In this document: positions 1 to 13,418 of the stretch, piece after piece
Position numbering within the stretch: position 1 is the first letter of the stretch
How the letters are laid out: the number at the start of each line of letters is the position of its first letter
NCBI GenBank assembly: GCA_035289485.1
Contig: DATDXA010000052.1
Span: forward strand, 1-13,418
Length of the DNA: 13,418 nt
Reading direction: 5' to 3'
DNA from: an archaeon
Lineage (GTDB): Archaea; Iainarchaeota; Iainarchaeia; Iainarchaeales; Iainarchaeaceae
The notes under the pieces: generated by a model
Told to the model about the DNA's origin: nothing
The model's database searches: none
What the model saw: the letters and a program-made list of their open reading frames with translations, nothing else
Program-made: the position numbers and the translations under genes

Positions 1-270
1 GGCAAGGTGAATGTGACCGATGAAGGAACAACCCCTCCTGCGCACTACAACGCAACTGTGAGCAACGGAGCAGTCACACAAGTTTCCACTGGCGATGCGC
101 AGAACCCGAAATATACTGTGGTTGTTTCCGCATCTGCGAGCGCGGCGATTAAAGCATCATCCGACCCGCTAAAGGAAGCTTTGAAGCAATACAAGAACGG
201 GCAGGTAACGGTTACTACAAATGACATCATTGCGAACCTGCAGCTGTTTGTGTTCAAGTTCTTTATCTGA
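1..270 (+). CDS. C-terminal part of a hypothetical protein, possibly SCP2-like fold; 5' end lies outside the window
   Basis: Frame is open from base 1 (GGC AAG GTG...) to TGA at 268-270. The pattern 'V.NGAV..V..G....P..TV......A....DP...L..Y.NG.V.V' loosely resembles SCP2-like domains. Confidence 0.6.
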   Translation, partial: GKVNVTDEGTTPPAHYNATVSNGAVTQVSTGDAQNPKYTVVVSASASAAIKASSDPLKEALKQYKNGQVTVTTNDIIANLQLFVFKFFI

Positions 271-276
271 GAAAGT

Positions 277-669
277 TTAATCCTTTGGGATTGCCCGTTG
301 ATCTTTTAATTGACGCAACCTAGCCTTATGAAAAGTCTTCTTACTAGTATCTTCATCTCTGACAAGCCTTAACGGGTCAGAACTCGCCCCTCTTGCATCG
401 ATTATTTCATCAAATAGCAGCCTGCGCACATCTTTCAAAAACCTAAATTGCCGCTCATAAGATTCACGAAAATCGCGTTTATCAGCAGGGCTGGATTTTT
501 TCCACTTCTGCCGGAGAGCATGAAGTTTGAGTTCAATCTTTTTTTTATCAGAGATAGCTATCTTTAGATCATAAACACTAGCGCCAGGATTGAATTCTTT
601 CCAGCCGCGCATTTGCAGAAGTCTTTCACGAGCAGCCTTAGAAATTTTTAGAGGAATCCTTCGCGCCAT
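277..669 (-). CDS. Basic K/R-rich hypothetical protein (130 aa, MARRIPLK...)
   Basis: The track ORF 277-747 overlaps tRNA-Gln. The in-frame ATG at 669 avoids the overlap and has an AT-rich TATA-like stretch (TTTATCAATAA on minus, ~699-689) upstream. No family recognised. Confidence 0.6.
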   Translation of the reverse strand: MARRIPLKISKAARERLLQMRGWKEFNPGASVYDLKIAISDKKKIELKLHALRQKWKKSSPADKRDFRESYERQFRFLKDVRRLLFDEIIDARGASSDPLRLVRDEDTSKKTFHKARLRQLKDQRAIPKD

Positions 670-708
670 AAAGCATAAGTGAATTCCTTTATTGATAAAT
701 ATTAGCAT

Positions 709-781
709 TAGCCCCGCCCGGATTCGAACCGGGGTATTCAGGTCCAAAGCCTGACATCCTTGGCCACTAGACGACGGGGCT
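709..781 (-). tRNA. tRNA-Gln (anticodon UUG)
   Basis: Minus strand reads AGCCCCG TC GTCTAGTGGCCAAGGAT G TCAGG CT-TTG-GA CCTGA ATAC CCCGG TTCGAAT CCGGG CGGGGCT A. Full cloverleaf, anticodon at 747-745, A1-U72 pair typical of archaeal tRNA-Gln, CCA not encoded. Confidence 0.97.
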
Positions 782-819
782 GTATCTTGCCTTCTACTCT
801 TGCCCTCTTTCTTTTTCCC

Positions 820-859
820 CAGGCTTTTTCTTTCTCTGCAAGGAGAAAGAAAAAGGCTG
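820..859. repeat. Inverted repeat / hairpin (13-bp perfect stem, one mismatch, then 3 bp; loop TGCAAG)
   Basis: CAGGCTTTTTCTTTCTC (820-836) is complementary to GAGAAAGAAAAAGGCTG (843-859) at 16 of 17 positions. Confidence 0.85.
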
Positions 860-874
860 CTAGGCGACGGGGCT
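860..874 (-). repeat. Direct repeat of the first 15 nt of tRNA-Gln
   Basis: CTAGGCGACGGGGCT (860-874) matches CTAGACGACGGGGCT (767-781) at 14 of 15 positions. Confidence 0.85.
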
Positions 875-955
875 AAATTGCACTTAATTATGTGCTGCGC
901 ATAAGGTTTTTAACGCAAAGCAGCAATGCTAGCTATAGCACTTGAAAGGGTTTTT

Positions 956-1660
956 ATGCAAGCAAAACTTTCAGGCCCACTGCCAGGGTCATTTTTTGGC
1001 AAGGTCGTGCTCGAACCATCTTCCATATCGCTACTCGCTTCAAATCTTCTTGTAATAGCACTTGCGGTGCTGCAGAACTGGAGCATTCTAACAATCATGC
1101 TCATTTACTGGATGCAGAGCGTAACAATTGGGATTTTCACATTTGCAAAGATTATGCTCATGAGAAACTACTCTAACGAAACGGTTTACATAAACGGCAA
1201 GCCCACAGAGCTCGCCGGCATGGGCTTTTTGGCTGGAAAAATTTTCATGGCAGGATTTTTTGCGGTTCATTACGGGACGTTCCATTTGGTGTACCTTGTA
1301 TTTATGCTCGGGTTTGCATTCTCAACGCCCGAATTTGGCGGGCCTGCCACAGGAATAGATTTTACAGGCGCATTCGCAACAGGGCTTTTATTCTTTCTAA
1401 ACCACCTTTTCTCATTTGTGCAAAACTACAGGCGCGACATCAATTATTCAAGCGGGGTAAGCGACATTGGCGCAACATTCATGGCGCCATACGCGAGAAT
1501 TATACCAATGCACCTGACAATCATTTTCGGCTTTGGCTTCTCATTCATTTTTCCAGGGAGCATATTCCCGCTCGTGCTTTTCATGCTGCTAAAAACATAT
1601 GCAGACCTTGCAACCCATTCAAATAAGCACTTTGTTGGAAACAGCACAGCAAGCCAATAA
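956..1660 (+). CDS. DUF6498-like multi-pass membrane protein
   Basis: Hydrophobic ORF with the motifs YWxQSxxIG, FFxxHYGxFHxVY and PYxRIIPMH that I associate with DUF6498. Start is ATG 956 or 926. Confidence 0.8.
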   Translation: MQAKLSGPLPGSFFGKVVLEPSSISLLASNLLVIALAVLQNWSILTIMLIYWMQSVTIGIFTFAKIMLMRNYSNETVYINGKPTELAGMGFLAGKIFMAGFFAVHYGTFHLVYLVFMLGFAFSTPEFGGPATGIDFTGAFATGLLFFLNHLFSFVQNYRRDINYSSGVSDIGATFMAPYARIIPMHLTIIFGFGFSFIFPGSIFPLVLFMLLKTYADLATHSNKHFVGNSTASQ

Positions 1661-1681
1661 AATGGCAATATTGGCTGTTTT
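1652..1681 (+). terminator. Possible hairpin + T-tract terminator after the DUF6498-like gene
   Basis: AGCCAATA (1652-1659) pairs with TATTGGCT (1669-1676) and is followed by GTTTT. Confidence 0.35.
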
Positions 1682-1766
1682 AGGCATTGCCGCTTCACAG
1701 CCTTTAAAAGAGTTTGCGAGTAGAATTCACTTTTAGCAAAGCCTGTTTTAAGGCTAAATTAAATTT

Positions 1767-1867
1767 GGAAGAGTGGCGCAGCCTGGTAGCGCACATGACT
1801 GATAACATCAGTAAAATGCAGTATGTCAGCAATCATGTGGTCGCAGGTTCAAATCCTGCCTCTTCCA
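1767..1867 (+). tRNA. tRNA-Ile (anticodon GAU) with a 27-nt intron at position 37/38 (intron 1805-1831)
   Basis: Acceptor stem GGAAGAG/CTCTTCC, D-arm GCGC..GCGC, anticodon stem CATGA/TCATG, CT-GAT-A, T-arm GCAGG-TTCAAAT-CCTGC. Canonical bulge-helix-bulge: CTGA (1799-1802)/TCAG (1826-1829) helix with 3-nt bulges TAA (1803-1805) and CAA (1830-1832). Confidence 0.95.
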
Positions 1868-1872
1868 TTTTA

Positions 1873-2991
1873 CTACGACAGATAAGAGTTAATCGCCCCC
1901 ATCAATTTTTTCTGCTTATCCAAGCCGATGAATCCGATTCGCTCATAAAATTTTATGAGGTTTTGTTTTCCGCTTATTTTTAATTCATAGTATTTTTCCT
2001 TGTAAGGGCCATGAAATTTGCATTCAATCTCAAAACACTTCAGCAGCTCAATCAATTCGAGCACGCCGTTCTTGTTTATCAGCATCATGCTTATCACTCG
2101 GTCTAGGTTTTTTCCATGAGGACTGAACACGACACTTCCCTCATCATCAAAGAAAGCCCGAAGGTAGCTAGCCTTGGCATTAGCATCCCCTGTTTTGACA
2201 AAATATGGAACTTCCCAGTCTATTGAGTAAAACTTTATGCCTCGAAGGAATTTTTTGACGCCTTTATTTGCAAACCCGGCACAATAAAGCCCTGGTTGCT
2301 TACAAGTCCGCCAAGGCTTTACTTTAAACAATTTCAGTGCAACATCAGAAAACTCGAATATTAAATGCAAATTCTGATTAGCGTAGGAAAATGTATTGGT
2401 ATTTTTGGGCTGGCAACCGTCCGCCTGCACATGCGCAATGAATTTTGCCAAGTTTTCACAAAAACCCGCACCGGCCTGATGTTCTATCGGATAATATTCT
2501 TCGACGGACTTCACACGAATTTTTTCTTTTGGCTGTTTCAGAAAGGTATGTATTATTCCATTTCTAATATCAGTTCTGTGTAAATTTTTGACACGCTTTA
2601 TTTCCCTTATTCTGGCGAAATAAGTAGCCCTTTCATCAATCAGGCTGGATGCCGCAAATCCGCCTTTTCTTGCACCCCAATTCAGCGGCATCTCTTTTTC
2701 TATGAATTTCTTAAATTCATTCGCGCTTTCATCGACAGATATGAGTTTTTGGAAAGTTGACAATCTGATATTGTTCTTTTCTGAAAAATAATCTCTCGCA
2801 GTGGTTTTTGAAACCTTGATTAGCCGCCCGAATGCAGTAATGCCAAGTGAGTGTCTCTGCATAAAATTTGCCAACAGTTCCCTCTGCTTCCCTTTCTGGA
2901 AAACGAGCCTTTTGTCCTCTATTCTCCCACCACAACAAGAACGGTTTTCCGGCTTAAAAGGAAACTGGGGGAGTTCGGTGCCGGTGCGCAT
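1873..2991 (-). CDS. Free-standing two-motif LAGLIDADG endonuclease-family protein with N-terminal HTH
   Basis: LAGLIDADG helices LAKFIAHVQADG and YLRAFFDDEGSV, C-terminal 'Y.LKISG..NL..FYE.IGF...KQ.KL' signature, and an N-terminal XRE-like HTH (GITAFGRLIKVSKTTARDY). No intein splice motifs. Start uncertain: GTG 3003, ATG 2991 (TAATG overlap) or ATA 2922. Confidence 0.88.
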   Translation of the reverse strand: MRTGTELPQFPFKPENRSCCGGRIEDKRLVFQKGKQRELLANFMQRHSLGITAFGRLIKVSKTTARDYFSEKNNIRLSTFQKLISVDESANEFKKFIEKEMPLNWGARKGGFAASSLIDERATYFARIREIKRVKNLHRTDIRNGIIHTFLKQPKEKIRVKSVEEYYPIEHQAGAGFCENLAKFIAHVQADGCQPKNTNTFSYANQNLHLIFEFSDVALKLFKVKPWRTCKQPGLYCAGFANKGVKKFLRGIKFYSIDWEVPYFVKTGDANAKASYLRAFFDDEGSVVFSPHGKNLDRVISMMLINKNGVLELIELLKCFEIECKFHGPYKEKYYELKISGKQNLIKFYERIGFIGLDKQKKLMGAINSYLS

Positions 2992-3140
2992 TAAAACCAC
3001 CACGCGAAAGAAATTCCTAGGAAAAAGCCGATTGTGCAGTTGAGAACAAAATCGGCTTGCTTTGGAAAACCAAAGAATTCCAGAATCGCAACGGAGTAAA
3101 TAATTCCTGCTCCAAGCAAAATGATTGAGAGAGGATTCAT
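2991..3140 (-). CDS. Small 49-aa two-TM membrane protein (not in ORF track)
   Basis: MNPLSIILLGAGIIYSVAILEFFGFPKQADFVLNCTIGFFLGISFAWWF*. GGAGG SD upstream, ATGA overlap with the upstream ORF, TAATG overlap with the LAGLIDADG ORF. Confidence 0.6.
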   Translation of the reverse strand: MNPLSIILLGAGIIYSVAILEFFGFPKQADFVLNCTIGFFLGISFAWWF

Positions 3141-3241
3141 TTTGAATCCTCCTTCATGTTCGCGAGTATTTGTGCGAATGTCCTGCCTTCTGCAAAAGGG
3201 CTTCCCCTCTGCGTTACTTTAGTTTGATAATGAAAACTCAT
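3137..3241 (-). CDS. Small 34-aa leader ORF (not in ORF track)
   Basis: MSFHYQTKVTQRGSPFAEGRTFAQILANMKEDSK*. Strong SD GGAGGTGA (3254-3247) just upstream of ATG 3241. Its stop overlaps the next ATG. Confidence 0.5.
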   Translation of the reverse strand: MSFHYQTKVTQRGSPFAEGRTFAQILANMKEDSK

Positions 3242-3481
3242 TCCAATCACCTCCAGCGCGGAAAACGAGTTTTTCCTAAAAAAAGCCGGTTACGGGCTTT
3301 GGGCGTATTAAATCCCTACAGCCCAAGCGACCCTTCCCAAGAAGGGGAAGGGTTTAAACGCACAAAGACCGAGGCTTTTGGAAAAACTCGGGGCTGGAGG
3401 TGGAAGGAGTTTCCATAGTTTAATGACCGGCACCTTAATAGAACCAAAAACCTATTTAATCGGAAGAATTACAATGGTTAC

Positions 3482-4360
3482 ATGTTCTCTGTTTGTGTGC
3501 CCGTTTATAGGGAGGAGGGCGCAATGCGCTTCATTGCGGATGAAATAAGAAAACAAGGCATCTGGAAGGAAAACAAGGACAAGGAACTCATCTTCTGCAT
3601 AAATGGAACAGGGGAACCTGGTTATGACAACAGCGTCAAGATTGCTGAAGAATTAGCTAAGGAGGATCCGGCCATTAAGGTCATCACACTTCAAGAAAAA
3701 GGAAAAAACTACGCTTGCAATGAATTGGTAAGAAGAAGCCGCAAAGACTCTGAAGTGCTGTTTTTCATCGATGCCGATGTAAAGTTAAGAGAAGGAACAT
3801 TAGATGCACTTAACAGAGCCCTTATTGGAAACCCTAGGCTTGCGGCAGCCGGAGCCATATCAGTTTTTGCAAAAGAGCCTACAAAAAAACATGAGTTTCT
3901 GAAAAGGCGCATTATGGATTCCAAGAATGATCCGGCTAGCTCGACACAGAGGGTAATAAACGGCAGATGTTATGCAATCAGGAAAAGCGAGGCAGAAAAA
4001 ATAAGAATGCCAAAGGACCAGCGAATCCATGAAGACGATTTTTTAACCCTAAAATTATGGGACAGGTTCAGGGTAGTCAAGGAAGCGGTTGTTTATTCCC
4101 ATGCCCCGAATGTGGCAGACGCCCTTAGACTCCAGAGAAGAACAGAAGTGTCAAGCACCCTGCTTAGAAGAAATTATCCTAAACTAGCCCCAATACTTGA
4201 TGGCCTCATAAGCACACCCGTGCCGTTCAAAGGAAGACAAATAAGACGGGTTATGAAAACTGGAGTAAGTATGTTCAGGAAAGTTTCAGGGAAAGTGGCG
4301 TTAATGCATGGTGTTGATACCTGGCCGAAAATGAAATCCACAAAACGCCCGTGGAAATAA
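3482..4360 (+). CDS. Glycosyltransferase family 2 (GT-A fold)
   Basis: N-terminal SVCVPVYRE, 'GKNYACN', DxD motif FFIDADV, and downstream 'GRCYAIRK' and 'HEDDFL'. TATA-like TATTTAAT at 3453-3460. Confidence 0.88.
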   Translation: MFSVCVPVYREEGAMRFIADEIRKQGIWKENKDKELIFCINGTGEPGYDNSVKIAEELAKEDPAIKVITLQEKGKNYACNELVRRSRKDSEVLFFIDADVKLREGTLDALNRALIGNPRLAAAGAISVFAKEPTKKHEFLKRRIMDSKNDPASSTQRVINGRCYAIRKSEAEKIRMPKDQRIHEDDFLTLKLWDRFRVVKEAVVYSHAPNVADALRLQRRTEVSSTLLRRNYPKLAPILDGLISTPVPFKGRQIRRVMKTGVSMFRKVSGKVALMHGVDTWPKMKSTKRPWK

Positions 4361-4362
4361 CC

Positions 4363-4899
4363 CTAAATTTCTTCCCACACCTCAACAAAGTTATCCACCA
4401 TCTCATCTAGGAAACTTCTGCGGTAATCAACAAGCAGCGTTGCAACGCGGTCCTTGTCTGCGACCTTGAAATAAGTCCTTCTCCCGCGCTTCGCCTTCTC
4501 AACTATTCCGCTCTCTGAGAGCTTGTCAAGATGCCATGAAGTTGTAGAAGGGCTCAGGGCAACGCCTGAGGAAATGGTTGTGTTGGTTGCAAAGCGCTTT
4601 TGCGTGAGAAACACAATAATTTTTCTCATGCTCTCCTGCCGCAGAAGCGACATAAGCTCCGTGTCCTCAAAATCCTGCCTCACAAGGTAGTAGCGCATGA
4701 ACTTTGTTTCCTTCTCGGTTTTGAGAAGGTGGCGCTTTACCAAAAAATCCAGGTGGTATTGCAGAGCGCCCGTTGCGATTCCAACACGCCTCTGAAGCTC
4801 GCGAAAATGAAGGCCGGGATTGCGCTTTATGGTGTTGTAGATTTTTTTCCGGATATCAAGCTGCAGCGCAGACTCAAGCACGTCATCCATTGCCACCAC
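4363..4899 (-). CDS. Double winged-HTH transcriptional regulator (archaeal COG3398/HVO_0163-like)
   Basis: Two ArsR/MarR-like wHTH units: R.KIY..I..NPGLHFREL...VGIATGALQYHL..L and R.I...L......T...IS..V.LSPSTTSWHL.KL...GIV. ATG 4890 with GGTG SD is an alternative start. Confidence 0.88.
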   Translation of the reverse strand: MVAMDDVLESALQLDIRKKIYNTIKRNPGLHFRELQRRVGIATGALQYHLDFLVKRHLLKTEKETKFMRYYLVRQDFEDTELMSLLRQESMRKIIVFLTQKRFATNTTISSGVALSPSTTSWHLDKLSESGIVEKAKRGRRTYFKVADKDRVATLLVDYRRSFLDEMVDNFVEVWEEI

Positions 4900-5300
4900 T
4901 AGTTCGCGTTTTCCTTTTCGAAAAACCTGCTCCAGGATTTACGGTAGAAAAGCGCGACGAGAAGCGAGAGCAATATCCCAAGCTCGAAAATGTTCTCAAC
5001 GGAATCCGATATGAAGTTGCCAGGCGAATAATAAATATCAATAATCTTCACGGCCCACTTTAGCGTGAAAAGCAGGAATGCGATTGAAACAAGCAGGATG
5101 CGCTTTGATTTTGACTTGGAATATGCGAGCACAGAAACTGAAAAAATCGCAAGTGAGAGCAGGAACACGACAACTTTTACAGGGAGATCAAGTGACTCTG
5201 CTAGCTGGACTTCGAGCCTTAAATAATCCCATAAATTATCCTGCGCAAAAACCGCAGAGGAGAGCAGCACCAAAAATAAAACAGGGAGGAACTTTTTCAT
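4899..5300 (-). CDS. Small membrane protein (signal peptide + ~3 TM) coupled to the wHTH regulator
   Basis: MKK + hydrophobic stretch + VFA signal, three further hydrophobic segments. Its stop abuts or overlaps the regulator start. Confidence 0.8.
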   Translation of the reverse strand: MKKFLPVLFLVLLSSAVFAQDNLWDYLRLEVQLAESLDLPVKVVVFLLSLAIFSVSVLAYSKSKSKRILLVSIAFLLFTLKWAVKIIDIYYSPGNFISDSVENIFELGILLSLLVALFYRKSWSRFFEKENAN

Positions 5301-5327
5301 ATTACCACTTTAATGGATAACCAAAAA

Positions 5328-5383
5328 GAAGAAAAAAGGAACAAAGGGAGGTGTGAGGTGAATATAGCCTTTGGTTCCTCTTC
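5328..5383 (-). terminator. Hairpin + U-tract (attenuator or small RNA) upstream of the 5300 gene
   Basis: GGAACAAAGG (5338-5347) pairs with CCTTTGGTTCC (5368-5378, one bulge). On the minus strand it is followed by TTTTTTCTTCTTTTT, and the palindromic TATA ATTTATAAAT lies at 5404-5413. Confidence 0.45.
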
Positions 5384-5592
5384 TGTACACATTGCCTTTG
5401 GCCATTTATAAATCAATTTTGGTACAACAACTATAAACCGTGTGAATAATGTACAAAAATTGCTTATTTTGCCGTTTTCCTTACTGAGTTAATATTAGGA
5501 CTCTAGGTAACTTTTAACCTCGGCACGCATCGAAAACTTTATTAACACTAAACACACTATATTTAGTGCAAACATCTTGGAGGTGTTTTTTC

Positions 5593-5835
5593 ATGGGTAG
5601 TGCAACTTTAACCTTGGCTATTCCGGACAAACTCAAGAAAGAGATTTCCGAAATAAAAGGAGTAAATTGGAGTGAAGAAACCAGACAATTTTTAGAGGAG
5701 CGTGTAAAGCGGCTCAAAATCCTCAAAAAGCTTGACGAACTCACCAAAGACAGCGACCTCACAGAGGAAGATGTAGTTGAGTTTGGGGACAAGATAAAAA
5801 GAGGAATTGCAAAAAGGCACGGTTTGGAAGCTTGA
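5593..5835 (+). CDS. Antitoxin, RHH/CopG-like (VapB-type)
   Basis: GGAGGTG SD at 5579-5585 before ATG 5593. 'TLTLAIPDKLKKEI.....VNWSE..R.FL' is an archaeal RHH antitoxin pattern. Lies directly upstream of a PIN gene. Confidence 0.8.
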   Translation: MGSATLTLAIPDKLKKEISEIKGVNWSEETRQFLEERVKRLKILKKLDELTKDSDLTEEDVVEFGDKIKRGIAKRHGLEA

Positions 5836-5853
5836 ATTGGAAAGTGATTCTCC

Positions 5854-6276
5854 TTGGCCCCAAGCACTCTTGTGGTTGACGCAAATATAGTAGTCGCAGC
5901 CTTGCTCAAGGATTCCACTTCTAGAAAACTCTTGTTGAGAGTCAAAAAACCAAAGCTATTCACACCAGAATTCATTAACGAGGAATTGTCAAAGTACCTC
6001 GGCGAGTTCTCCAAAAGGCTCAATGTCAAAGAAGCCGAGTTAAAGTTTGCTGTTGAGCAACTTATATTAGAATCAAAAATGGAAGTGGTTCCATTGCACG
6101 AGTACTCCGGATTTATAGCCCAAGCCACGGAAATAACCCCTGACTTGAAAGATGCCGAGTATTTCGCATTGGCACTCAAGCTCGGCTGCCCACTCTGGTC
6201 GCAGGACTCCAAACTCAAAAAACAGCCAAAGGTCAAAGTGCTTTCAACCAAAGAGCTCATTGAAAAAATGAAATAA
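5854..6276 (+). CDS. PIN-domain ribonuclease toxin (VapC-like)
   Basis: PIN acidic motifs VVDANIV, EEL, DLKDAEYFALA and LWSQDSKL. 140 aa, TTG start. Confidence 0.9.
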   Translation: MAPSTLVVDANIVVAALLKDSTSRKLLLRVKKPKLFTPEFINEELSKYLGEFSKRLNVKEAELKFAVEQLILESKMEVVPLHEYSGFIAQATEITPDLKDAEYFALALKLGCPLWSQDSKLKKQPKVKVLSTKELIEKMK

Positions 6277-6450
6277 AGATGTGATTTTATGTCAAAAAAG
6301 GTTTCGATGAAAACAGAAAAACAAAAACCGGATTTCATACAGGGCGAACTGGCATTGCGGCAATGTTGAAATTTGTGTTAATTTTCATTGCCAATCTTTG
6401 AAAATTTTCAGAAAATACCATTTAAAAAAAGAATTGAGATTTTACTATTT

Positions 6451-7194
6451 GTGAAAAAATTTGAAATAATGGAGTTTTTAGGTATCTTGGTAATAGGATT
6501 AATTTTTATTTCGGGTTGTACGTCAACCCAAACTCAACAGCAAATACAGAATCCTGGAAATTCTGCCAATAACATTCAACAAAATAACAATGATTCAATC
6601 TCTCCTGAAAAAGAGACTGACGGGAAATGTTCGATTGAATTTTCAAAAGGCCTTGAAGCATATGATAAATGTATTATTGATTTGGCTAAAACCCAGATGG
6701 ATGAAAAAAATTGTGATTTGATTAAAGAAGATGCAAGCAGTTATGGTCGTAATTATGCTCTTTTTGACAGGGATTTGTGTTTCTTGGGAGTGGCAATTGC
6801 AAAAAAAGATGGTTCACTGTGCAGTAGGATAGTAGATGCATTCTATAAGTCAAATTGTGAATCGACAGTTTCCAATAAGAGTAATTACAGCATTCAATAT
6901 TGTGATAGTGTTGGCAACGATAATAGCGCCAAAGATTTATGCCTTGCTGAGCTTGCTGCAAATTTAAAAGATGCTTCCATTTGCGGAAAAATTTCCGGTT
7001 CAGCTGCTGCACTTGTTAAACCTCAATGCTACGCAAAAGTGGCAATGGCAACAGATGATGTTAGTATCTGCGATAATTCTGGTAGCGTGAGGGATTGGTG
7101 CTATTTATACCTTGCCGAACTCAAAAAAGACAGTAGTTTATGTGACAATGTTCCAAAATCTATGCAGAATGATTGCATGCTGACCGCCAGTTAG
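6451..7194 (+). CDS. Cys-rich repeat lipoprotein
   Basis: GTG 6451 gives MKKFEIMEFLGILVIGLIFISGC (lipobox ISGC; ATG 6469 is an alternative). A Q/N-rich linker is followed by five exact C-x4-A-x4-D-x3-C repeats. Confidence 0.82.
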   Translation: MKKFEIMEFLGILVIGLIFISGCTSTQTQQQIQNPGNSANNIQQNNNDSISPEKETDGKCSIEFSKGLEAYDKCIIDLAKTQMDEKNCDLIKEDASSYGRNYALFDRDLCFLGVAIAKKDGSLCSRIVDAFYKSNCESTVSNKSNYSIQYCDSVGNDNSAKDLCLAELAANLKDASICGKISGSAAALVKPQCYAKVAMATDDVSICDNSGSVRDWCYLYLAELKKDSSLCDNVPKSMQNDCMLTAS

Positions 7195-7232
7195 ACAAAT
7201 TAGTTGTGCCATATTTTAGGGTTTGAGTTTAT

Positions 7233-7850
7233 ATGGATTATTCTTGGATTGGACGAAATGCAGATTTAGGCATTAGCGCAGCAATAGAAATATCGGCTGT
7301 ATTGGCGTTTCTGAGTCTTTCATTTCCAGTTACCGGGGCTTTGGCATTTTTTATTTTGCTTAGGCTAATTACTTGGTCGTTTGAATACCTAAAGTTCTGT
7401 GCGTTTCTTTTTTCCACGGTGAATAATTCAAGCGAAATTCAAAATACATTTATACTTGGGTTACCAATGGTTTTCGTCGGACTTTGCTGGCTGTTTAACC
7501 TTGGAATTGCATCACTTTTTTATGCGGTTACTGGTAAAATGCAAAACTTAGTGGAAATTGTTTCACTCACACCAAAGGAACTTCACCTGCAACTTGCCGT
7601 CGGCATTATTTCAGGTTTAATTTTTCTATCTTTATTTTTCATACAAAAACGTTATCAGTCAAAAATGGATTTGAGCATTTTAATTTCGGCAATCTTGATG
7701 CCGTTCACTACACTTGCAATCATTTTGATACTTATTTTACCAAGCATATTTTTGGGACCTGCACAAATAACTGCAGCACTATTTTTTATTTTAATAGTTA
7801 CAGACAAACTTGCCCTCTACTGGTTCAGAAAAAAACAAAACCACAACTAG
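7233..7850 (+). CDS. Hypothetical multi-pass membrane protein
   Basis: 205-aa ORF with about 6 hydrophobic segments, followed by a terminator-like hairpin. Confidence 0.75.
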   Translation: MDYSWIGRNADLGISAAIEISAVLAFLSLSFPVTGALAFFILLRLITWSFEYLKFCAFLFSTVNNSSEIQNTFILGLPMVFVGLCWLFNLGIASLFYAVTGKMQNLVEIVSLTPKELHLQLAVGIISGLIFLSLFFIQKRYQSKMDLSILISAILMPFTTLAIILILILPSIFLGPAQITAALFFILIVTDKLALYWFRKKQNHN

Positions 7851-7880
7851 CCAAACCAACATTATTTGGTTTGGTTTTAT
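7851..7880 (+). terminator. Hairpin + T-tract terminator
   Basis: CCAAACCAA (7851-7859) and TTGGTTTGG (7866-7874) form a perfect 9-bp stem followed by TTTTAT, immediately after the stop codon. Confidence 0.6.
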
Positions 7881-8094
7881 CTTAAACTTTAAACCAACTT
7901 ACAAGACTGAAAATTGAAAATACAATCTCTCGTAAAGGGGTGTTCAACAAAAGAAATCCATGAACAACTCAACAAGTGACCTCAACATCAAGGAACGGCG
8001 AAAATGGCAAGATTAGTCAATTTTATAAATCAAAACAGGTACAACAGCGCCCCTAAACCCTCAAAACTAAGCCTTTTAAGGCAAAAACGCCAAA

Positions 8095-8622
8095 ATGGTA
8101 GGTATGCACTCAATACGCTTTTTGACGATTTTTGCAATATTGGGGGTTTTTGCACTACTTTTGGCAGGATGCACAGAACCGCAGTCAAGCAATGTGGATG
8201 TTTTCTTCTGCCCCCAGGACCAGTGCGAGGACCGCGCAGTTGCCGCCATAGGAGCTGCGCAGACTTCGGTTGATGTTGCAATGTACTCATTCACATCAAA
8301 AGAACTCTTCTCAGAGCTTGAAAAGGCATCCGCGCGCGGAGTGAGGGTAAGAGTTGTTGCAGATTATACGCAGTCGGCTGGCCAGAGCTCGGTTGTTCCC
8401 TGGCTTGATGGGAACGGGATTCCTGCAAGGGTTTATACAAAAAGCATAACCATGCACGACAAGTTCGCGGTAATAGACAACAAAATAGTTCTCACGGGGT
8501 CGTACAACTGGACAACAAATGGGGATGAGAGAAACCGCGAGAACCTCGCGATAATAACTGATAGCGCAATCGCGGAGCAGTACAGCGAGGAATTCTTCAG
8601 GCTCTGGGCGGAAGCGGATTAG
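8095..8622 (+). CDS. Phospholipase D-family single-HKD protein (Nuc-like nuclease/PLD), predicted lipoprotein
   Basis: HxKxxxxD...GSxN motif (HDKFAVIDNKIVLTGSYNWT), 'DVAMYSFT', 'RGVRVRVV', 'N.EN', and lipobox LAGC. Confidence 0.9.
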   Translation: MVGMHSIRFLTIFAILGVFALLLAGCTEPQSSNVDVFFCPQDQCEDRAVAAIGAAQTSVDVAMYSFTSKELFSELEKASARGVRVRVVADYTQSAGQSSVVPWLDGNGIPARVYTKSITMHDKFAVIDNKIVLTGSYNWTTNGDERNRENLAIITDSAIAEQYSEEFFRLWAEAD

Positions 8623-8652
8623 AAGCAAATTAACTAAAACCCACACTCGAAA

Positions 8653-10047
8653 TTATTTCATTTCTTCAAGTATTTTCTGCACCGCGCGCGCATCCGCCTT
8701 GCCTTTCATTTTGCGCATCACGGTTCCGATTAGAAAGTTCATGGATTTTGAATTTCCCGTTTTGAATTCGGTGAAAGCAGAAGCATTTTCCGCAACCGCT
8801 TCCTTGACCGCTTTTTCCAAATCGCCAGAAGACACATCAATTAGGAGTTTATTCTTCTCCAAAAATTCCTTAGGCTCAATTCCTTCAAGAGCGTACTTTA
8901 TGAGCGATTCTTTAGCGTTCTTGTCGCTGACCTTTCCGCCCTTTAGAAGAGCCACGAGAGCTGAAATCCCCTTTGCAGTTATTTTAGTGTCCGCAAGGCC
9001 TAAGGAATTATAGTTCAGAATCCCTAGCAGCTCTCTTGAAACAATCCTTGCTGCAATCTGCACATCAACTTTGGCAGCATCCTCAAAAATCTGGGCAATG
9101 TCTTTGTTCTGCGCGAGAACCTTTGCATCGTACTCCTTCAGGCCGAATTCACCCATGAAGCGCTTCGCTTTTTCTTCTGACATTTCAGGGAGTTCTTTCC
9201 TGATTTTTTCCAGCCAACTTGCATCAATTTGCGTTGGAACCAAATCCGCATCCACAATAAACCCATAATCCTCTTCGGATTCCTTTTTCCTCAAAGTATA
9301 GGTTGTTCCGCTTGCCTCATCAAAGCCGCGCGTTTCCATTTCAATTTTCCCGCCTTCAGTTATCACAGTTTTCTGCCGCTCCAATTCGTGCAGCAATACA
9401 AGCTCCACATTTTTTGTCCCGGTGACATTCTTGACCTCAACCCTTTCTCCGCCCTTGATTGAGATGTTGGTATCGGCCTTTATTACAAATTTGCCGGAAT
9501 TGAAAATTCCAAGATAATCGACAATTAGATTCAGCTTATCAAGAAATTCTTTTGCCTCTTCTTTTGAAGATATATCAGGTTCGGTCACAACTTCACAGAG
9601 AGGAACACCGGACCTATTGTAATCTACCAAGACATACATTGAACCGTGCATTCCTGATTCATGAACCAGTGCTCCGGGGTCTTCCTCAAGATGAACTCGT
9701 CTAATTTTGATTTTTTTGCCGCTGTCAAGTGCGATGAACCCATTATTCCCAAGCGGAGCGTCATACTGGCTTATCTGAAAATTTTTGGCGAGGTCCGGGT
9801 AAAAATATGTTTTTCTCGAAAAGACAATTTCTTTTTCAACCCGGCAATTTAGGGCAAGCGCCAATTTAATGGCATAATCAACGGCTTTTTTGTTTAGAAC
9901 TGGTTTGCTGCCTGGATGCCCAAGGCAAATGGGGCAGGTGGCAGTATTTGGCTCCGCATCTTTTTGGACAATTGGGCAACTGCAAAAGAGCTTACTCTCA
10001 CAGTCCAGAGGCAGATGTAATTCGAAGCCACAGATGAATTCTCCCAT
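8653..10047 (-). CDS. gatB: Asp/Glu-tRNA amidotransferase subunit B
   Basis: GFELH, SKLFC, CPICLGHPGSKPVLN, FSRKTYFYPDL.KNFQISQY, HLEEDPG, DYNRSGVPL.EVVTEP, and a C-terminal YqeY-like domain (FLIG.VMR.MKGKAD). At 464 aa it lacks the GatE insertion. Confidence 0.96.
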   Translation of the reverse strand: MGEFICGFELHLPLDCESKLFCSCPIVQKDAEPNTATCPICLGHPGSKPVLNKKAVDYAIKLALALNCRVEKEIVFSRKTYFYPDLAKNFQISQYDAPLGNNGFIALDSGKKIKIRRVHLEEDPGALVHESGMHGSMYVLVDYNRSGVPLCEVVTEPDISSKEEAKEFLDKLNLIVDYLGIFNSGKFVIKADTNISIKGGERVEVKNVTGTKNVELVLLHELERQKTVITEGGKIEMETRGFDEASGTTYTLRKKESEEDYGFIVDADLVPTQIDASWLEKIRKELPEMSEEKAKRFMGEFGLKEYDAKVLAQNKDIAQIFEDAAKVDVQIAARIVSRELLGILNYNSLGLADTKITAKGISALVALLKGGKVSDKNAKESLIKYALEGIEPKEFLEKNKLLIDVSSGDLEKAVKEAVAENASAFTEFKTGNSKSMNFLIGTVMRKMKGKADARAVQKILEEMK

Positions 10048-10074
10048 AGGAGAATATTGCCTGATTAGATTTAA

Positions 10075-11295
10075 TTAGCTTTTTATGCCGAAAACCCTGC
10101 CATTTCGCCATCCAATTCGCTTTACTTCAACTAGCCCCAACTCAAGAAGACCCTTTATTCGTCTACCTTGAAGGTTATACCCAATCAGTTGGTCTCTTAA
10201 GTTTCCGGTTCCGATGTTAAGCAGGTACCCAAGTTCTTTTATCGTAAGATCCTGTTTTCTAAGAAGCTTCAGAATTTCTGCTTTTGTATGCCCTCGGTGG
10301 CGGTTATACCATTTTCTATTTTTTAGAGTGAAATGTTTCAAAAAAGCCGCCTGCTTTGAAGGAATGACAAAATCGCCCATGTCTTCTTTTATCATATCAA
10401 AACTTTTAACGGAAATAATTGCTGACTTTTTGTAATTCTGGACTTGGTAACCAAGTTTTTTGCACAACCTACGAGACACCTCGGTAAGACATGATTTTGG
10501 CGAGAATAATATTTCGATTCCACCATCGCCTATCCTACCTTCGTCTATAATTATCGCCTTTAACAATTCAACAAGAAATGGCCTAGGGTAAGAAAATATT
10601 TGTTCTGGGAAAACTACTTTTCCAGTCCTGAAATCCAGTATTTGAAAATATTTTTTTAGTATTTTTGGGACAATTTTTGCAACAATTACCCTCCAATGCT
10701 TTTTCAAAATTGAGTGGTCTACATCCCCAAAAGACACTTTCAATTTTACAATGAAATTATCCATTGCCTCAGGACTTTTACTTATATAGCATGCATTTCC
10801 CTTCTCCCCACCATAGCCGTCAGATAAAAAATGCGCCAATACTGCAAACGTTTCGGGAATTATCTGCAAGGGCAATTGCGGTTTTATTATTATTCCGGCT
10901 CTTGAACTAGCCTTGATTTCTTGAACCTGATTTTGCAAGGAATTTATTTCCAAACCGAGTGCATAACAGAGTTTCTTTAAGCTAGTAATATGAATGAACC
11001 GATTTACTTTACCGTGCTTTTTCAGTTCAAAACCATTTTTCCACGAATATAAGCTGCTGCCCTTGATTTTGAGCTCTTTTCTAGCTAATCCAAGAGAGCC
11101 ATATTTTTCTTCCAATTGTGAAAAGATAATTTTTCTGGCATTTTTTTCAAGAAGAATGCAAGTATCTTCAGGAAAATCTGATAAGTTCAAATAATACAAT
11201 TCCCCACCATCACAAAAGTTGTTCTTGACAATATATTGCTCTTTGCAGGGAGTGCACTGCCGGTGCGAACCTGAAGAAGAGAGGCGATGCATCAT
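10075..11295 (-). CDS. Free-standing two-motif LAGLIDADG endonuclease-family protein with N-terminal HTH and C-terminal wHTH
   Basis: LAGLIDADG helices VLAHFLSDG and LLKAIIIDEGRI, N-terminal HTH (YGSLGLARKELKIKGSSLYSWKNG), and C-terminal ArsR-like wHTH (EILKLL...LTIKELGYLLNI....LR..L...L.ELGLVE). Start is ATG 11295 (ATGA overlap) or TTG 11199. Confidence 0.82.
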   Translation of the reverse strand: MMHRLSSSGSHRQCTPCKEQYIVKNNFCDGGELYYLNLSDFPEDTCILLEKNARKIIFSQLEEKYGSLGLARKELKIKGSSLYSWKNGFELKKHGKVNRFIHITSLKKLCYALGLEINSLQNQVQEIKASSRAGIIIKPQLPLQIIPETFAVLAHFLSDGYGGEKGNACYISKSPEAMDNFIVKLKVSFGDVDHSILKKHWRVIVAKIVPKILKKYFQILDFRTGKVVFPEQIFSYPRPFLVELLKAIIIDEGRIGDGGIEILFSPKSCLTEVSRRLCKKLGYQVQNYKKSAIISVKSFDMIKEDMGDFVIPSKQAAFLKHFTLKNRKWYNRHRGHTKAEILKLLRKQDLTIKELGYLLNIGTGNLRDQLIGYNLQGRRIKGLLELGLVEVKRIGWRNGRVFGIKS

Positions 11296-11640
11296 TCATC
11301 GCCTCCGAACTCTTGCAGAATCCACAGTTCCCTGTCTGTGAGTTCCTCTCCGTGCTCATAGGAGAGCATTGCATTTAGTATCTCCCTTCTGTTTGGGAGC
11401 TGAATATTTTCGATTTTCATGAGCCAACCACCTCCAAAGGGTTGAATTTTTTCGTGGACGTCTCTGCTGCTTTTGGAGGCATTAAATATTTAGGCTCAGC
11501 CGACCCATCCCAAGATGGGTAAATGTTTAAGCCGAGAAAAGCAGAGTCCTTCGAAAAAATTCCTTAGGGAGGTGGTTGTGGAAATTGCTTGCCAAAATGA
11601 ATTAACCGTATTTTACAAAGGGCTCTTTGTGTAATTGGCA
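11248..11640. ncRNA. Putative structured RNA / cis-element, copy 2 (LAGLIDADG-associated)
   Basis: Contains the 20-nt motif shared with 2969-2988, local hairpins (11281-11305, 11323-11340, 11346-11366, 11382-11399), and a long hairpin 11411-11587 with the same apex as copy 1. Confidence 0.55.
11292..11420 (-). CDS. Small 42-aa acidic leader ORF (not in ORF track)
   Basis: MKIENIQLPNRREILNAMLSYEHGEELTDRELWILQEFGGDE*. SD GGAGGTG (11435-11429) lies 8 nt upstream of ATG 11420. Its TGA overlaps ATG 11295 of the LAGLIDADG ORF. Confidence 0.55.
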   Translation of the reverse strand: MKIENIQLPNRREILNAMLSYEHGEELTDRELWILQEFGGDE

Positions 11641-11654
11641 AATAAGCCGAGTTA

Positions 11655-12524
11655 CTATGAAATTACTACTGTTTGTAGTATGATGAATATGACTATCCAA
11701 ATTAGTATTAGCGCAAATTCTAAAAACATTAAAATTTTTGCTAACAGCGCAGTTTTTGTTCCATCCACTTCAGGGGTTATATGTTTTAAGGCAAAGAAAC
11801 TCAGAATTGGCTGTAACAAAACAACGGCCATTAGCGCTATTGGCGCAAAAATTGTGAAAATGAAGGTAAGGATGTAGGCTAAAATCCACAGTGCGAGTTT
11901 TGCAATGTAGAATTTCTTTTTGGAAAATCCCTTTACTAAAATAGGTAATACCAAATAAGTTGCTGCTATCAGCAAAATCAATAAAAGCGAAAACAGAAAA
12001 CCCGCAAAGTTTGTGTTCCCTGCAACAGATGGGTTAAGTGCCGGTCCTGGTGTTGTATCTCCAAGCACAACCAAACAGGCTCTTTCGGTTTTTGTCAAAT
12101 CAAAGGCGCAATCGTTCTTCAAATCAACGAATTGAAAATTAGGGTTATTGTAAGATGAAAGATCACCTTCGAATTCATTCATGCGGTCGCAGATAACTGT
12201 AGTGCTGACACGATAATTTCCGAGAGGCTGGATTATCCTGCCTTTTTCAATGATTTTGAATGTGTTTTCTGTCTTATTTTTTCCAATCGAAATGCAAACT
12301 TGTTCACTTGATAGGACTTTCGAATTTTTTGCAATAATATATGAGGAAAGATTACTGTCACTGTAAACAACCGCATTTGAATCGTTTGGAATTCCAAGTT
12401 GGTTTATTGTCATTTTGATTTCGTTAGCAAAAAACTCATTCCCTCCAATTTGCGCTATTGGCGTTCCAAGAACAAACGAAAAAAGCAGTACAAGACAAAT
12501 TGAGAAATAAAGGTAATTTTTCAT
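11655..12524 (-). CDS. Hypothetical membrane protein (signal peptide, extracellular Cys-containing domain, 3-4 C-terminal TM helices)
   Basis: 289-aa ORF with an N-terminal signal, a soluble domain with 4 Cys, and a hydrophobic C-terminus. Confidence 0.78.
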   Translation of the reverse strand: MKNYLYFSICLVLLFSFVLGTPIAQIGGNEFFANEIKMTINQLGIPNDSNAVVYSDSNLSSYIIAKNSKVLSSEQVCISIGKNKTENTFKIIEKGRIIQPLGNYRVSTTVICDRMNEFEGDLSSYNNPNFQFVDLKNDCAFDLTKTERACLVVLGDTTPGPALNPSVAGNTNFAGFLFSLLLILLIAATYLVLPILVKGFSKKKFYIAKLALWILAYILTFIFTIFAPIALMAVVLLQPILSFFALKHITPEVDGTKTALLAKILMFLEFALILIWIVIFIILQTVVIS

Positions 12525-12586
12525 GTAATTAGTATCAATTCCCAGAAGTTAATACTTTCCATAGGCACTAGGCGACAATTAACCAT

Positions 12587-13354
12587 TCAAACCCTCTCCA
12601 GATGCTTCAAAATGCCTTCGTGCAAAACCTTGTTCGTTGCAAGGAAATGCCCAGAATTTAACCCGGCTTCCTCGCCATTTATGTCAGTTACCCTTCCGCC
12701 CGCTTCGCGAACTATTAGCATTGCCGCGGCTACATCCCAGGGCTTCAAATCATACTCAAAAAACCCGTCGCAAATCCCATGCGCAACAAAGCACATATCC
12801 AAGGAAGCCGACCCAAATCGCCTAATATCCTGGCAGTTGTCCCTTAGGGCAATTATTGATTTGTAGGTCTTCTCCTTGAGGCTCTCACTTTCATAAGGAA
12901 AGCCGCTCACAAGAAGCGATTGCAGCATATCCGAAGTTTTGGAAACGTGAATCTTGTTCTTGTTAAGGAACGCGCCTTTGCCAAGCTGCGCGGAGTACAA
13001 ATTCTTTGTAACGGGGTTGTATACGCAGCCGCACTGCACAATCCCATTTTTTACAAATGCCACCGAAACAGCGAACTGCTCAACTCCGTGGAAGAAATTC
13101 GTGGTCCCGTCAATCGGGTCAATTACCCAGAGGTTTTGCTGATCGCCATGCATTCCGCCTTCCTCTCCTAAAAATCCGTGCGAAGGGAAATCATTTGCAA
13201 TCACTGCCCTGATTTTCTTTTCGCACTCAACATCGGCCTTTGTAACAATGCTGCGGTCGCTTTTGAAATCGGCTCCGATGCCTGTTCTGAAATATTTCAT
13301 CGCAATATCCCCTGCGCGGATGCATGCAAGCTTTGCGGTTTCGATTTCGTTCAT
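12587..13354 (-). CDS. suhB: Inositol monophosphatase family protein (IMPase/FBPase)
   Basis: Motifs VTKAD..CE, GEE, WVIDPIDGTTNF, RRFGSASLD.C.VA.G..DGF.E..LKPWDVAA..LIV.EAGG. GGAGG SD upstream. Confidence 0.93.
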   Translation of the reverse strand: MNEIETAKLACIRAGDIAMKYFRTGIGADFKSDRSIVTKADVECEKKIRAVIANDFPSHGFLGEEGGMHGDQQNLWVIDPIDGTTNFFHGVEQFAVSVAFVKNGIVQCGCVYNPVTKNLYSAQLGKGAFLNKNKIHVSKTSDMLQSLLVSGFPYESESLKEKTYKSIIALRDNCQDIRRFGSASLDMCFVAHGICDGFFEYDLKPWDVAAAMLIVREAGGRVTDINGEEAGLNSGHFLATNKVLHEGILKHLERV

Positions 13355-13416
13355 TTCAGCGCCTCCATCACAACAGTTCCGGCTGTTGGGTACGGATGTC
13401 CCGTCTGCGACGGGAC
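13351..13416 (-). CDS. Possible 3' end of an upstream ORF truncated by the window edge
   Basis: Open frame ...VPSQTGHPYPTAGTVVMEALK* ends in an ATGA overlap with suhB. Too short to identify. Confidence 0.35.
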   Translation of the reverse strand, partial: VPSQTGHPYPTAGTVVMEALK

Positions 13417-13418
13417 GC

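Follow-up and report, generated by a model that had tools for sequence, protein, structure and literature searches.

The stretch of DNA considered here (the window) comprises 13,418 nt from an archaeon of the family Iainarchaeaceae in the phylum Iainarchaeota (NCBI GenBank assembly GCA_035289485.1, contig DATDXA010000052.1, positions 1 to 13,418 of the forward strand), and it contains two copies of a long imperfect hairpin, each of which stands directly ahead of a small open reading frame (ORF) and a gene for a LAGLIDADG-type nuclease. Hairpin copy 1 (type A) occupies positions 3230..3416 and copy 2 (type B) positions 11411..11587; both are assigned to the minus strand, a label that gives the strand of the genes they precede and not a strand known to fold in vivo. 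Copy 1 is followed on the minus strand by a small ORF of 34 aa (3137..3241), by a 49-aa hydrophobic ORF (2991..3140) that has its own AGGAGG, overlaps the small-ORF stop codon and matches no Pfam family at cut-off, and by nuclease gene 1 (1873..3003, 376 aa; PF14528, E 3.4e-7). Copy 2 is followed by a small ORF of 42 aa (11292..11420, minus strand), whose stop codon overlaps the start of the next gene in an ATGA, and by nuclease gene 2 (10075..11295, minus strand, 406 aa), which has no Pfam match and is LAGLIDADG-like in that both LAGLIDADG-type motifs align with those of gene 1. Read on the minus strand, the cassette runs from the hairpin to a small conserved ORF and then, usually, to a LAGLIDADG homing endonuclease gene.

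The hairpin had first been noticed in the sequence of copy 1, and the original prediction held that its nested arms pair, that its CCAA-loop apex covaries with that of copy 2, and that selection acts on a folded structure in RNA or single-stranded DNA (ssDNA). All of the pairings listed for copy 1 are present, among them CACCTCCAGC (3248-3257/3393-3402), ATGAAAACTC (3230-3239/3407-3416) and the apex at 3331-3346. When folded, copy 1 (3225-3420) reaches -88.0 kcal/mol on the plus strand (z -8.12) and -85.4 kcal/mol on the minus strand (z -8.40), with 0/200 dinucleotide shuffles as good in either case, and copy 2 (11405-11600) reaches -77.1 kcal/mol (plus strand, z -6.22) and -65.0 kcal/mol (minus strand, z -5.39); the comparison with shuffled controls that had been proposed was thus passed by both copies on both strands, which beat all shuffles. 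The two copies share 77% mean column identity, and RNAalifold applied to both returned 48 pairs, 11 of them changed on both sides, so that the T-A to A-T swap described at the apex is a real compensatory change. These energies, and the pairing kept in homologues, support the idea that selection acts on a fold, whether of RNA or of ssDNA. The apex motif CGACCCWTCCCAAGAWGGG has two exact sites in the window (3328 and 11501) against 0.00 expected, and no others in the 1.16-Mb, 64-contig genome. The CCAA apex is present and covaries between the two copies, but it does not serve as a hallmark of the family, of which it is the most variable region. The pattern that would have pointed to a double-stranded operator instead, an apex kept while the arms lose their pairing, is the reverse of what is found in homologues, where the arms stay paired and the apex sequence varies freely. 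Inspection of the folds by eye also set aside two known motifs: a kink-turn is excluded by the symmetry of a 3x3 GGA/GAG loop, and the bulges are not those of a canonical bulge-helix-bulge.

A covariance model (R1) was built from the plus strand of the two window copies, alongside a sense-strand model (R2), and R1 scores 194.6 bits for copy 1 (3240-3408) and 176.4 bits for copy 2 (11421-11584). In its own genome (G000) R1 finds five full copies and one that is cut by a contig end (contig C52 twice, C34, C21, C5 and C27). It matches 38/101 genomes sampled around the genome of origin, with 1-8 copies per genome, and 16 of the 22 genomes of the same family; in a phylum-wide sample it matched 59/151 genomes, all of them labelled as belonging to the same order or closer. 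Rfam 15 holds no family for the hairpin: at gathering scores the whole window gives two tRNA matches only, and at E values up to 10 the region 3150-3500 gives only two chance-level matches (13-17 bits against cut-offs of 44-45). Likewise, literature searches on DPANN archaea, Iainarchaeota and archaeal free-standing homing endonucleases, which did not extend to subscription journals or bioRxiv supplements, yielded no description of the element among the matches listed. Copies are about 170 nt long with about 50 pairs, and their folding energies range from -44 to -88 kcal/mol.

Pairing is retained across the family in the face of extensive sequence change. Across 74 copies, in alignments that are fitted to the covariance model and hence favour it, the share of paired cells is 91.0%, which falls to 61.3% or 59.4% with the partners slid by one column (-1 or +1, respectively), and double-sided changes are found at 45 of the 48 pairs (404 cells), values reached by 0/500 shuffles. 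A smaller set of 34 copies, made up of the best match per genome plus the copies of the genome of origin, gives the same picture (92.8% paired against 59.6% and 59.2% when slid; double-sided changes at 41/48 pairs). There is little doubt that the covariation is real despite the model-fitted alignment, given these slid controls and given that the apex stems are wholly different in sequence and length among copies, yet always paired. The conserved portion of the family is its lower stems, in which four blocks recur: a basal CACCTCC/GGAGGTG, a T-run/A-run block (GAATTTTTTC/GAAAAAATTC), the 3x3 GGA/GAG loop and a TTAAA/TTTAA helix. The last of these is near-invariant, two of its five pairs never varying and the other three being the same in 72-73 of the 74 copies. 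A strongly covarying structure of this size that is missing from Rfam may well represent a new archaeal family of cis-regulatory RNA.

The small ORF stands in close register with the hairpin. It was found that the Shine-Dalgarno (SD) sequence and start codon of this conserved ORF lie inside the basal stem of the hairpin, on the strand opposite to the one on which the structure was originally read. In copy 1 the SD sequence GGAGGTG (3248..3254, minus strand) is paired with 3396-3402, which, read from the sequence and the folds, is an anti-SD arm with CACCTCC on the minus strand (3396..3402), and in copy 2 the SD sequence GGAGGTG (11429..11435, minus strand), 8 nt before the ATG, is paired with 11568-11574. 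GGAGG is found at most 18 nt upstream of a start codon in 72/74 copies, with a GGAGG-to-start spacing of 6-11 nt in 70 of these 72; the start codon itself lies between -7 and +9 nt from the edge of the hairpin model, and between -3 and +2 nt in 64/74 copies. The SD helix is about 90% paired across the 74 copies, the spacer between SD and AUG is itself paired and covarying (helix 1 shows double changes at 3/3 pairs), and in almost all copies the stem runs as far as the start codon and stops there. The other arm also contains a GGAGGTG, and its use in a bidirectional arrangement was considered and rejected, as no consistent ORF or start codon is found on that side; the few starts at -4 to -12 beside this second GGAGGTG look like over-extended ORF calls.

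The ORF product is 27-61 aa long, and two peptide families cover 65/74 copies: family A, to which the ORF of copy 1 belongs, at 26 copies, and family B, to which that of copy 2 belongs, at 39. Of the remaining copies, five are truncated or degenerate and four have a long ORF directly at the hairpin, which is a LAGLIDADG gene by Pfam in one case (L098), shows the motif by eye in two (L007 and L104) and encodes a Pif1 helicase domain in the other (L111). Among 23 within-group pairs of small ORFs, 142 of 326 differing codons are synonymous, which suggests from sequence comparison that the ORF is under purifying selection. The identity of the peptides is not revealed by Pfam, where matches are sub-threshold only (the best being crAss001_48, E 0.0015, 18.8 bits against a cut-off of 24.8), and the ESM Atlas gave no usable match for the peptide families. 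The gene that follows often overlaps the small-ORF stop codon.

The genes that lie downstream of the hairpin are of selfish types. Among 63 downstream ORFs of at least 150 aa, Pfam assigns 40 to LAGLIDADG-type nucleases, six to ArdC_N plus Peptidase_M78, one to an Eco57I-type methylase and two to other families; the other 14 have no Pfam match, and LAGLIDADG motifs could be seen by eye in several of them. At six loci (L025, L031, L076, L082, L096 and L106) the ArdC-like gene, which combines ArdC_N with an IrrE/M78-type peptidase, replaces the nuclease gene, and at L089 the Eco57I-type methylase gene follows the hairpin and small ORF. Copy 1 and the copy on contig C34 of the same genome share 88.8% identity over 241 nt, which comprise the hairpin plus some 70 nt of the small ORF, and nothing beyond. 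The orthologous copies of cassette 2 in G000 and the related genome G001 are 89.7% identical in the hairpin, 93.8% in the small ORF, 76.7% in the nuclease gene and 58% in the upstream DNA, and the hairpin retains its pairing between these two genomes, whose nuclease orthologues have diverged to 77% identity. Judged by these identities, the hairpin and small ORF together are a module of their own that is conserved more strongly than the nuclease gene.

Comparison of gene orders indicates that cassette 2 is an insertion between the formerly overlapping genes for inositol monophosphatase (IMPase) and gatB. Among 20 other genomes of the family with gatB, 13 have the end of the IMPase gene at most about 30 nt from the start of gatB, and the junctions that were inspected show a TGA/ATG overlap with the SD sequence inside the IMPase gene. 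In G000 and G001 the hairpin, small ORF and nuclease gene lie between the two genes, together with an extra membrane-protein gene in G000; in G008 a single arm of the hairpin survives together with the final codons at the 3' end of the nuclease gene, and in G003 only a 3' scar. In all four of these genomes the N-terminus of gatB is different, and a TTAAAT box starts 27 nt before the gatB ATG. This box looks like a replacement promoter, which cassette 2 seems to have supplied to gatB along with a replacement start; in the window it belongs to the 3' end of the cassette (10048..10090, minus strand), which takes the place of the ancestral IMPase/gatB overlap. For cassette 1 no empty site was found in relatives, in which the glycosyltransferase and DUF6498 genes that flank it are either missing or too divergent. 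Nor did the short metagenome contigs of runs X3, X4, X5 and X7 contain a joint that skips either cassette, so that the reads yield no empty site. It was also observed that public metagenome contigs (runs X3-X5) tend to break at the hairpins, at 3245-3405 and 11340-11458, and such palindromes may fragment assemblies of these genomes. A separate observation on gatB is that in L067 (G007:C46) and L068 (G012:C65) the gene carries an insertion near residue 30, giving open frames of 651 or 641 aa, which exceed the 464-aa gatB by about 190 aa; the insertion may be a mini-intein.

The arrangement described above suggests that the hairpin acts as an mRNA leader that masks the ribosome-binding site (RBS) of the small ORF at the head of a mobile cassette, with a candidate promoter inside the hairpin itself, a proposal to which we give about an even chance. 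In a transcript begun upstream, the two arms would pair into a stem of about 50 pairs (-60 to -88 kcal/mol) that encloses the GGAGGTG, the spacer and the AUG. For as long as it is masked in this way the small ORF would remain untranslated, and the nuclease gene, in many cases translationally coupled to the small ORF, would likewise be silent. Runs of T in the arms would in addition stop an incoming archaeal RNA polymerase, so that the cassette would be insulated at the level of transcription as well. Cassette 2 is inserted between IMPase and gatB, and transcription of IMPase should therefore run into the hairpin. The covarying SD-to-AUG spacer appears to have no sequence function of its own, which is consistent with a masking leader.

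Some transcript must nevertheless lack the distal arm, because so stable a stem cannot open at equilibrium and yet the genes behind it are conserved. For expression, transcription would have to start within the hairpin itself, past a TTTAAT box in the gene-proximal arm, and the masking arm would be absent from such an RNA. This box is invariant and is found at 3307..3312 (minus strand) in copy 1, where it pairs with TTTAAA (3353-3358), and at 11481..11486 (minus strand) in copy 2, where it pairs with TTTAAG (11526-11531); it lies about 66 nt before the small-ORF ATG. A TTTAAA box is found about 34-38 nt upstream of five tRNA genes of this genome at which the distance was measured, with similar boxes before several more of its 24 tRNA genes, and by its likeness to these the TTTAAT box is the obvious candidate for an internal promoter, a putative TATA box. 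Outside the hairpin, no shared promoter box at a fixed distance was found in the 90 nt upstream of the 34 copies.

Several observations weigh against the masking of an RBS by a sense-strand leader. None of the eight public sequencing runs that contain the stretch is an RNA run. The strand antisense to the ORFs folds better than the sense strand in 60/74 copies, by a mean of 4.9 kcal/mol (28/34 in the smaller set), and with DNA parameters in 67/74. The numbers of pairs on the two strands are equal, so that the energy gap comes from the unpaired bases alone: on the antisense strand purines prevail among them (A 26.2 and G 13.0 per copy), on the sense strand pyrimidines, and A-rich loops, which are typical of functional RNA folds, are here found on the antisense strand. 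The sense RNA also contains runs of 5-7 U, which are archaeal termination signals and should limit the amount of full-length leader RNA. By a crude ORF call the upstream neighbour is divergent at 42/74 copies and co-directional at 32/74, so that masking cannot be explained by read-through alone. To mask an SD sequence, far fewer than about 50 pairs would suffice, and the sixth base of the TTTAAT box is not that of the TTTAAA found before the tRNA genes of this genome. Counts of G-U against A-C juxtapositions were also tried as a test of which strand folds, and the test was dropped when its outcome proved to follow the alignment model: the R1 (plus-strand) alignment gives 152 G-U and 88 A-C cells in the 74 copies (65 and 37 in the 34), the R2 (sense) alignment of the same 74 copies gives 108 G-U and 40 A-C for the sense strand, and two of the columns that enter the count (103/192 and 107/190) are a register artefact.

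The better folding of the antisense strand invites other explanations, among them that the hairpin is an ssDNA promoter, an archaeal counterpart of the plasmid Frpo/ssi elements. The folded plus strand would here present a duplex TATA-like box while the DNA is single-stranded, on uptake, transfer or resection, and RNA polymerase would transcribe the small ORF, together with the gene for the nuclease or the anti-restriction protein, before the complementary strand is made. Such an explanation agrees with the fact that the better-folding strand (60/74 copies with RNA parameters, 67/74 with DNA parameters) is the template strand of the downstream genes, that the most invariant helix is the paired TTAAA/TTTAA box at a workable promoter distance of about 66 nt before the ATG, and that T-runs on a plus-strand template become A-runs in the RNA and pose no termination problem; the ArdC-like anti-restriction genes (6/63) and the Eco57I-type methylase gene (1/63) among the cargo would also be in keeping with it. 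We consider it quite improbable, in that there is no sign of an ssDNA stage for these chromosomal cassettes and the window shows no genes for conjugation or uptake, and in that it gives no reason for a stem that covers the SD sequence and spacer and ends at the start codon; the strand asymmetry itself rests only on the purine content of unpaired bases. To our knowledge, there is no report of archaeal TBP, TFB and RNA polymerase transcribing hairpin DNA. The same asymmetry could arise if a stand-alone structured antisense RNA were made from the plus strand and acted on the SD regions of its own and other cassettes, as the CACCUCC/GGAGGUG blocks shared by all copies would allow. The plus strand has the lower folding energy, its hairpin-loop bases are rich in purines and above all in A (A 303, C 139, G 107, U 73), and this strand alone allows tandem G-A pairs in the conserved 3x3 GGA/GAG loop. 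A plus-strand unit would, however, lack any conserved flanking promoter or terminator; a run of six T occurs about 30 nt into it, the region upstream on that strand is the antisense of a coding region, and the seemingly favourable G-U/A-C counts were reversed under the sense-strand model, so that an RNA of this kind seems very improbable.

The remaining explanations dispense with a folded RNA or relate the hairpin to mobility alone. It is conceivable, if unlikely, that the element is a palindrome that acts at the level of DNA, either as an insulator that stops transcription arriving from either side at its T-runs and restarts it from internal TATA-like boxes, or as a recombination-prone palindrome whose arms stay alike through gene conversion. 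Both arms, when read outward, present the same invariant order of TTTAA box, A-run block and GGAGGTG, T-runs are present on both strands, and the strand-specific models R1 and R2 score both strands alike; the hairpin moreover sits at cassette boundaries beside host genes that need signals of their own, as where cassette 2 appears to give gatB a TATA-like box. A conserved ORF is nevertheless found on one side only, the other GGAGGTG being without a consistent start codon, and gene conversion of the arms would not halt at a start codon. Function in duplex DNA also does not require that wholly different apex stems be paired, or that pairing be kept in diverged orthologues. Finally, the multiplicity of the hairpin (1-8 copies per genome), its palindromic form and its position at the boundaries of inserted DNA recall a miniature inverted-repeat transposable element (MITE) or a recombination site like the attC of integrons that merely happens to lie near such genes. 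Here the constant register with SD sequence, start codon and conserved ORF speaks against chance proximity. MITEs occur as many near-identical non-coding copies, and this genome has five full copies and one truncated copy, each in register with an ORF and, in the case of copies 1 and 2, diverged to 77% mean column identity. An attC site belongs to an array of sites beside an integron integrase, an arrangement not found here: tyrosine recombinase matches lie only on other contigs (C43 and C10), and the two copies in the window are 8 kb apart with housekeeping genes between them and form no cassette array. Of all the explanations, a MITE or attC-like site is the one that we would least expect to prove correct.

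Other features of the window and genome concern tRNA genes and one further gene pair. A tRNA-Ile gene (anticodon GAU; 1767-1867, plus strand) with a 28-nt intron after the anticodon loop was found by Rfam (61.1 bits) and missed by ARAGORN; its 3' end lies 6 nt from the stop codon of the convergent nuclease gene 1 (1873). The tRNA-Gln gene (709-781, minus strand) has a 20-nt copy of its 5' end, 85% identical, 93 nt upstream of the gene (762-781 and 855-874), and between the two 5'-end copies, at 820-859, lies an inverted repeat with 17-nt arms that are 94% complementary. This upstream repeat may be an integration scar or a promoter-proximal palindrome, and similar palindromes are found upstream of the three tRNA-Ser genes of the genome. 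The genes for tRNA Ile, Lys and Trp (G000 C36:~4610-4668, C43:~10870-10929 and C49:~10436-10495) have in common a conserved stretch of ~25 nt located 30-55 nt upstream of the mature 5' end. Elsewhere in the window, at 5566-6276 (plus strand), a PIN-domain gene (PF10130, E 8e-23) stands behind another small ORF, and the two are likely to be a toxin-antitoxin pair.

Homing endonuclease genes must stay nearly harmless to their neighbours, and phages use short RBS-hiding hairpins in this setting. The present lineage of tiny archaea, with genomes of about 1 Mb, appears to have a standard portable front end, consisting of the hairpin and a small protein gene, which is common to dozens of unrelated nuclease genes and to some anti-restriction genes. 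In DPANN genomes the hairpin further serves as a marker of mobile cassettes, which gene callers would otherwise take for plain intergenic DNA. Were the hairpin instead an ssDNA promoter, it would be the first Frpo-like element outside bacteria and would represent a new route of spread for homing endonucleases, by which incoming DNA could cut the resident chromosome and home into it.

Of the known systems with which the hairpin can be compared, the attC sites of integrons are alike in being imperfect palindromes attached to mobile gene cassettes, with structure conserved more than sequence. They differ in that no integron integrase and no array are found nearby, and the present hairpin is 5' of its genes in a fixed register with SD sequence and start codon. 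The Frpo elements are described as long imperfect hairpins with promoter boxes in the stem, which on the transferred strand stand ahead of genes for anti-defence functions, SSB and methylases (PMC11541004). They resemble the archaeal hairpin in these structural features, the promoter box here being a candidate only, in their position just upstream of anti-restriction and methylase genes that are useful on entry, and in that the better-folding strand is the template strand; they are bacterial, with sigma-70 boxes on a transferred plasmid strand, whereas the hairpins here are chromosomal, with no transfer machinery seen, and their stem extends over the SD sequence and start codon.

Closer parallels are provided by the leaders of free-standing endonuclease genes. 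In marine metagenome loci with 'fractured genes', similar hairpins precede 15/16 free-standing endonuclease genes that invade host genes (Dassa et al. 2009; PMC2677866). These loci share with the present cassettes the complementary conserved motifs in the arms, a promoter box within the hairpin, here a candidate only, and the preservation of a start for the downstream host gene, here gatB. Their setting is bacterial and phage-like, their nucleases are of the GIY-YIG or Vsr-like kind and their box is a phage late-promoter box; they have no sequence relation to the archaeal hairpin and do not include the small ORF. The RBS-sequestering hairpins that regulate I-TevI, I-TevII, I-TevIII and segB of phage T4 and mobE of Aeromonas phage Aeh1, in combination with an internal promoter (PMC2988022), are the systems that the proposed leader would most resemble in its working. 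The SD sequence and start codon of the archaeal ORF are paired in a stable stem directly 5' of the ORF, which would place the hairpin in the same class in the sense that it would work alike, and not by homology. That it is an archaeal analogue of the hairpins before T4-type homing endonuclease genes is a proposition that we regard as evenly poised. In both settings a stable stem buries the SD sequence of a homing endonuclease cassette lodged among host genes, and a promoter element in the hairpin, here a candidate box only, would let self-initiated transcripts escape. The archaeal system differs from the phage leaders in its host and in having a TATA-type box in place of the T4 late promoter; in its size, with about 50 pairs over about 170 nt going far beyond SD masking; in the gene that would be masked, which is a conserved small ORF ahead of the nuclease gene; and in forming one covarying sequence family across an order, common to many unrelated nuclease genes.

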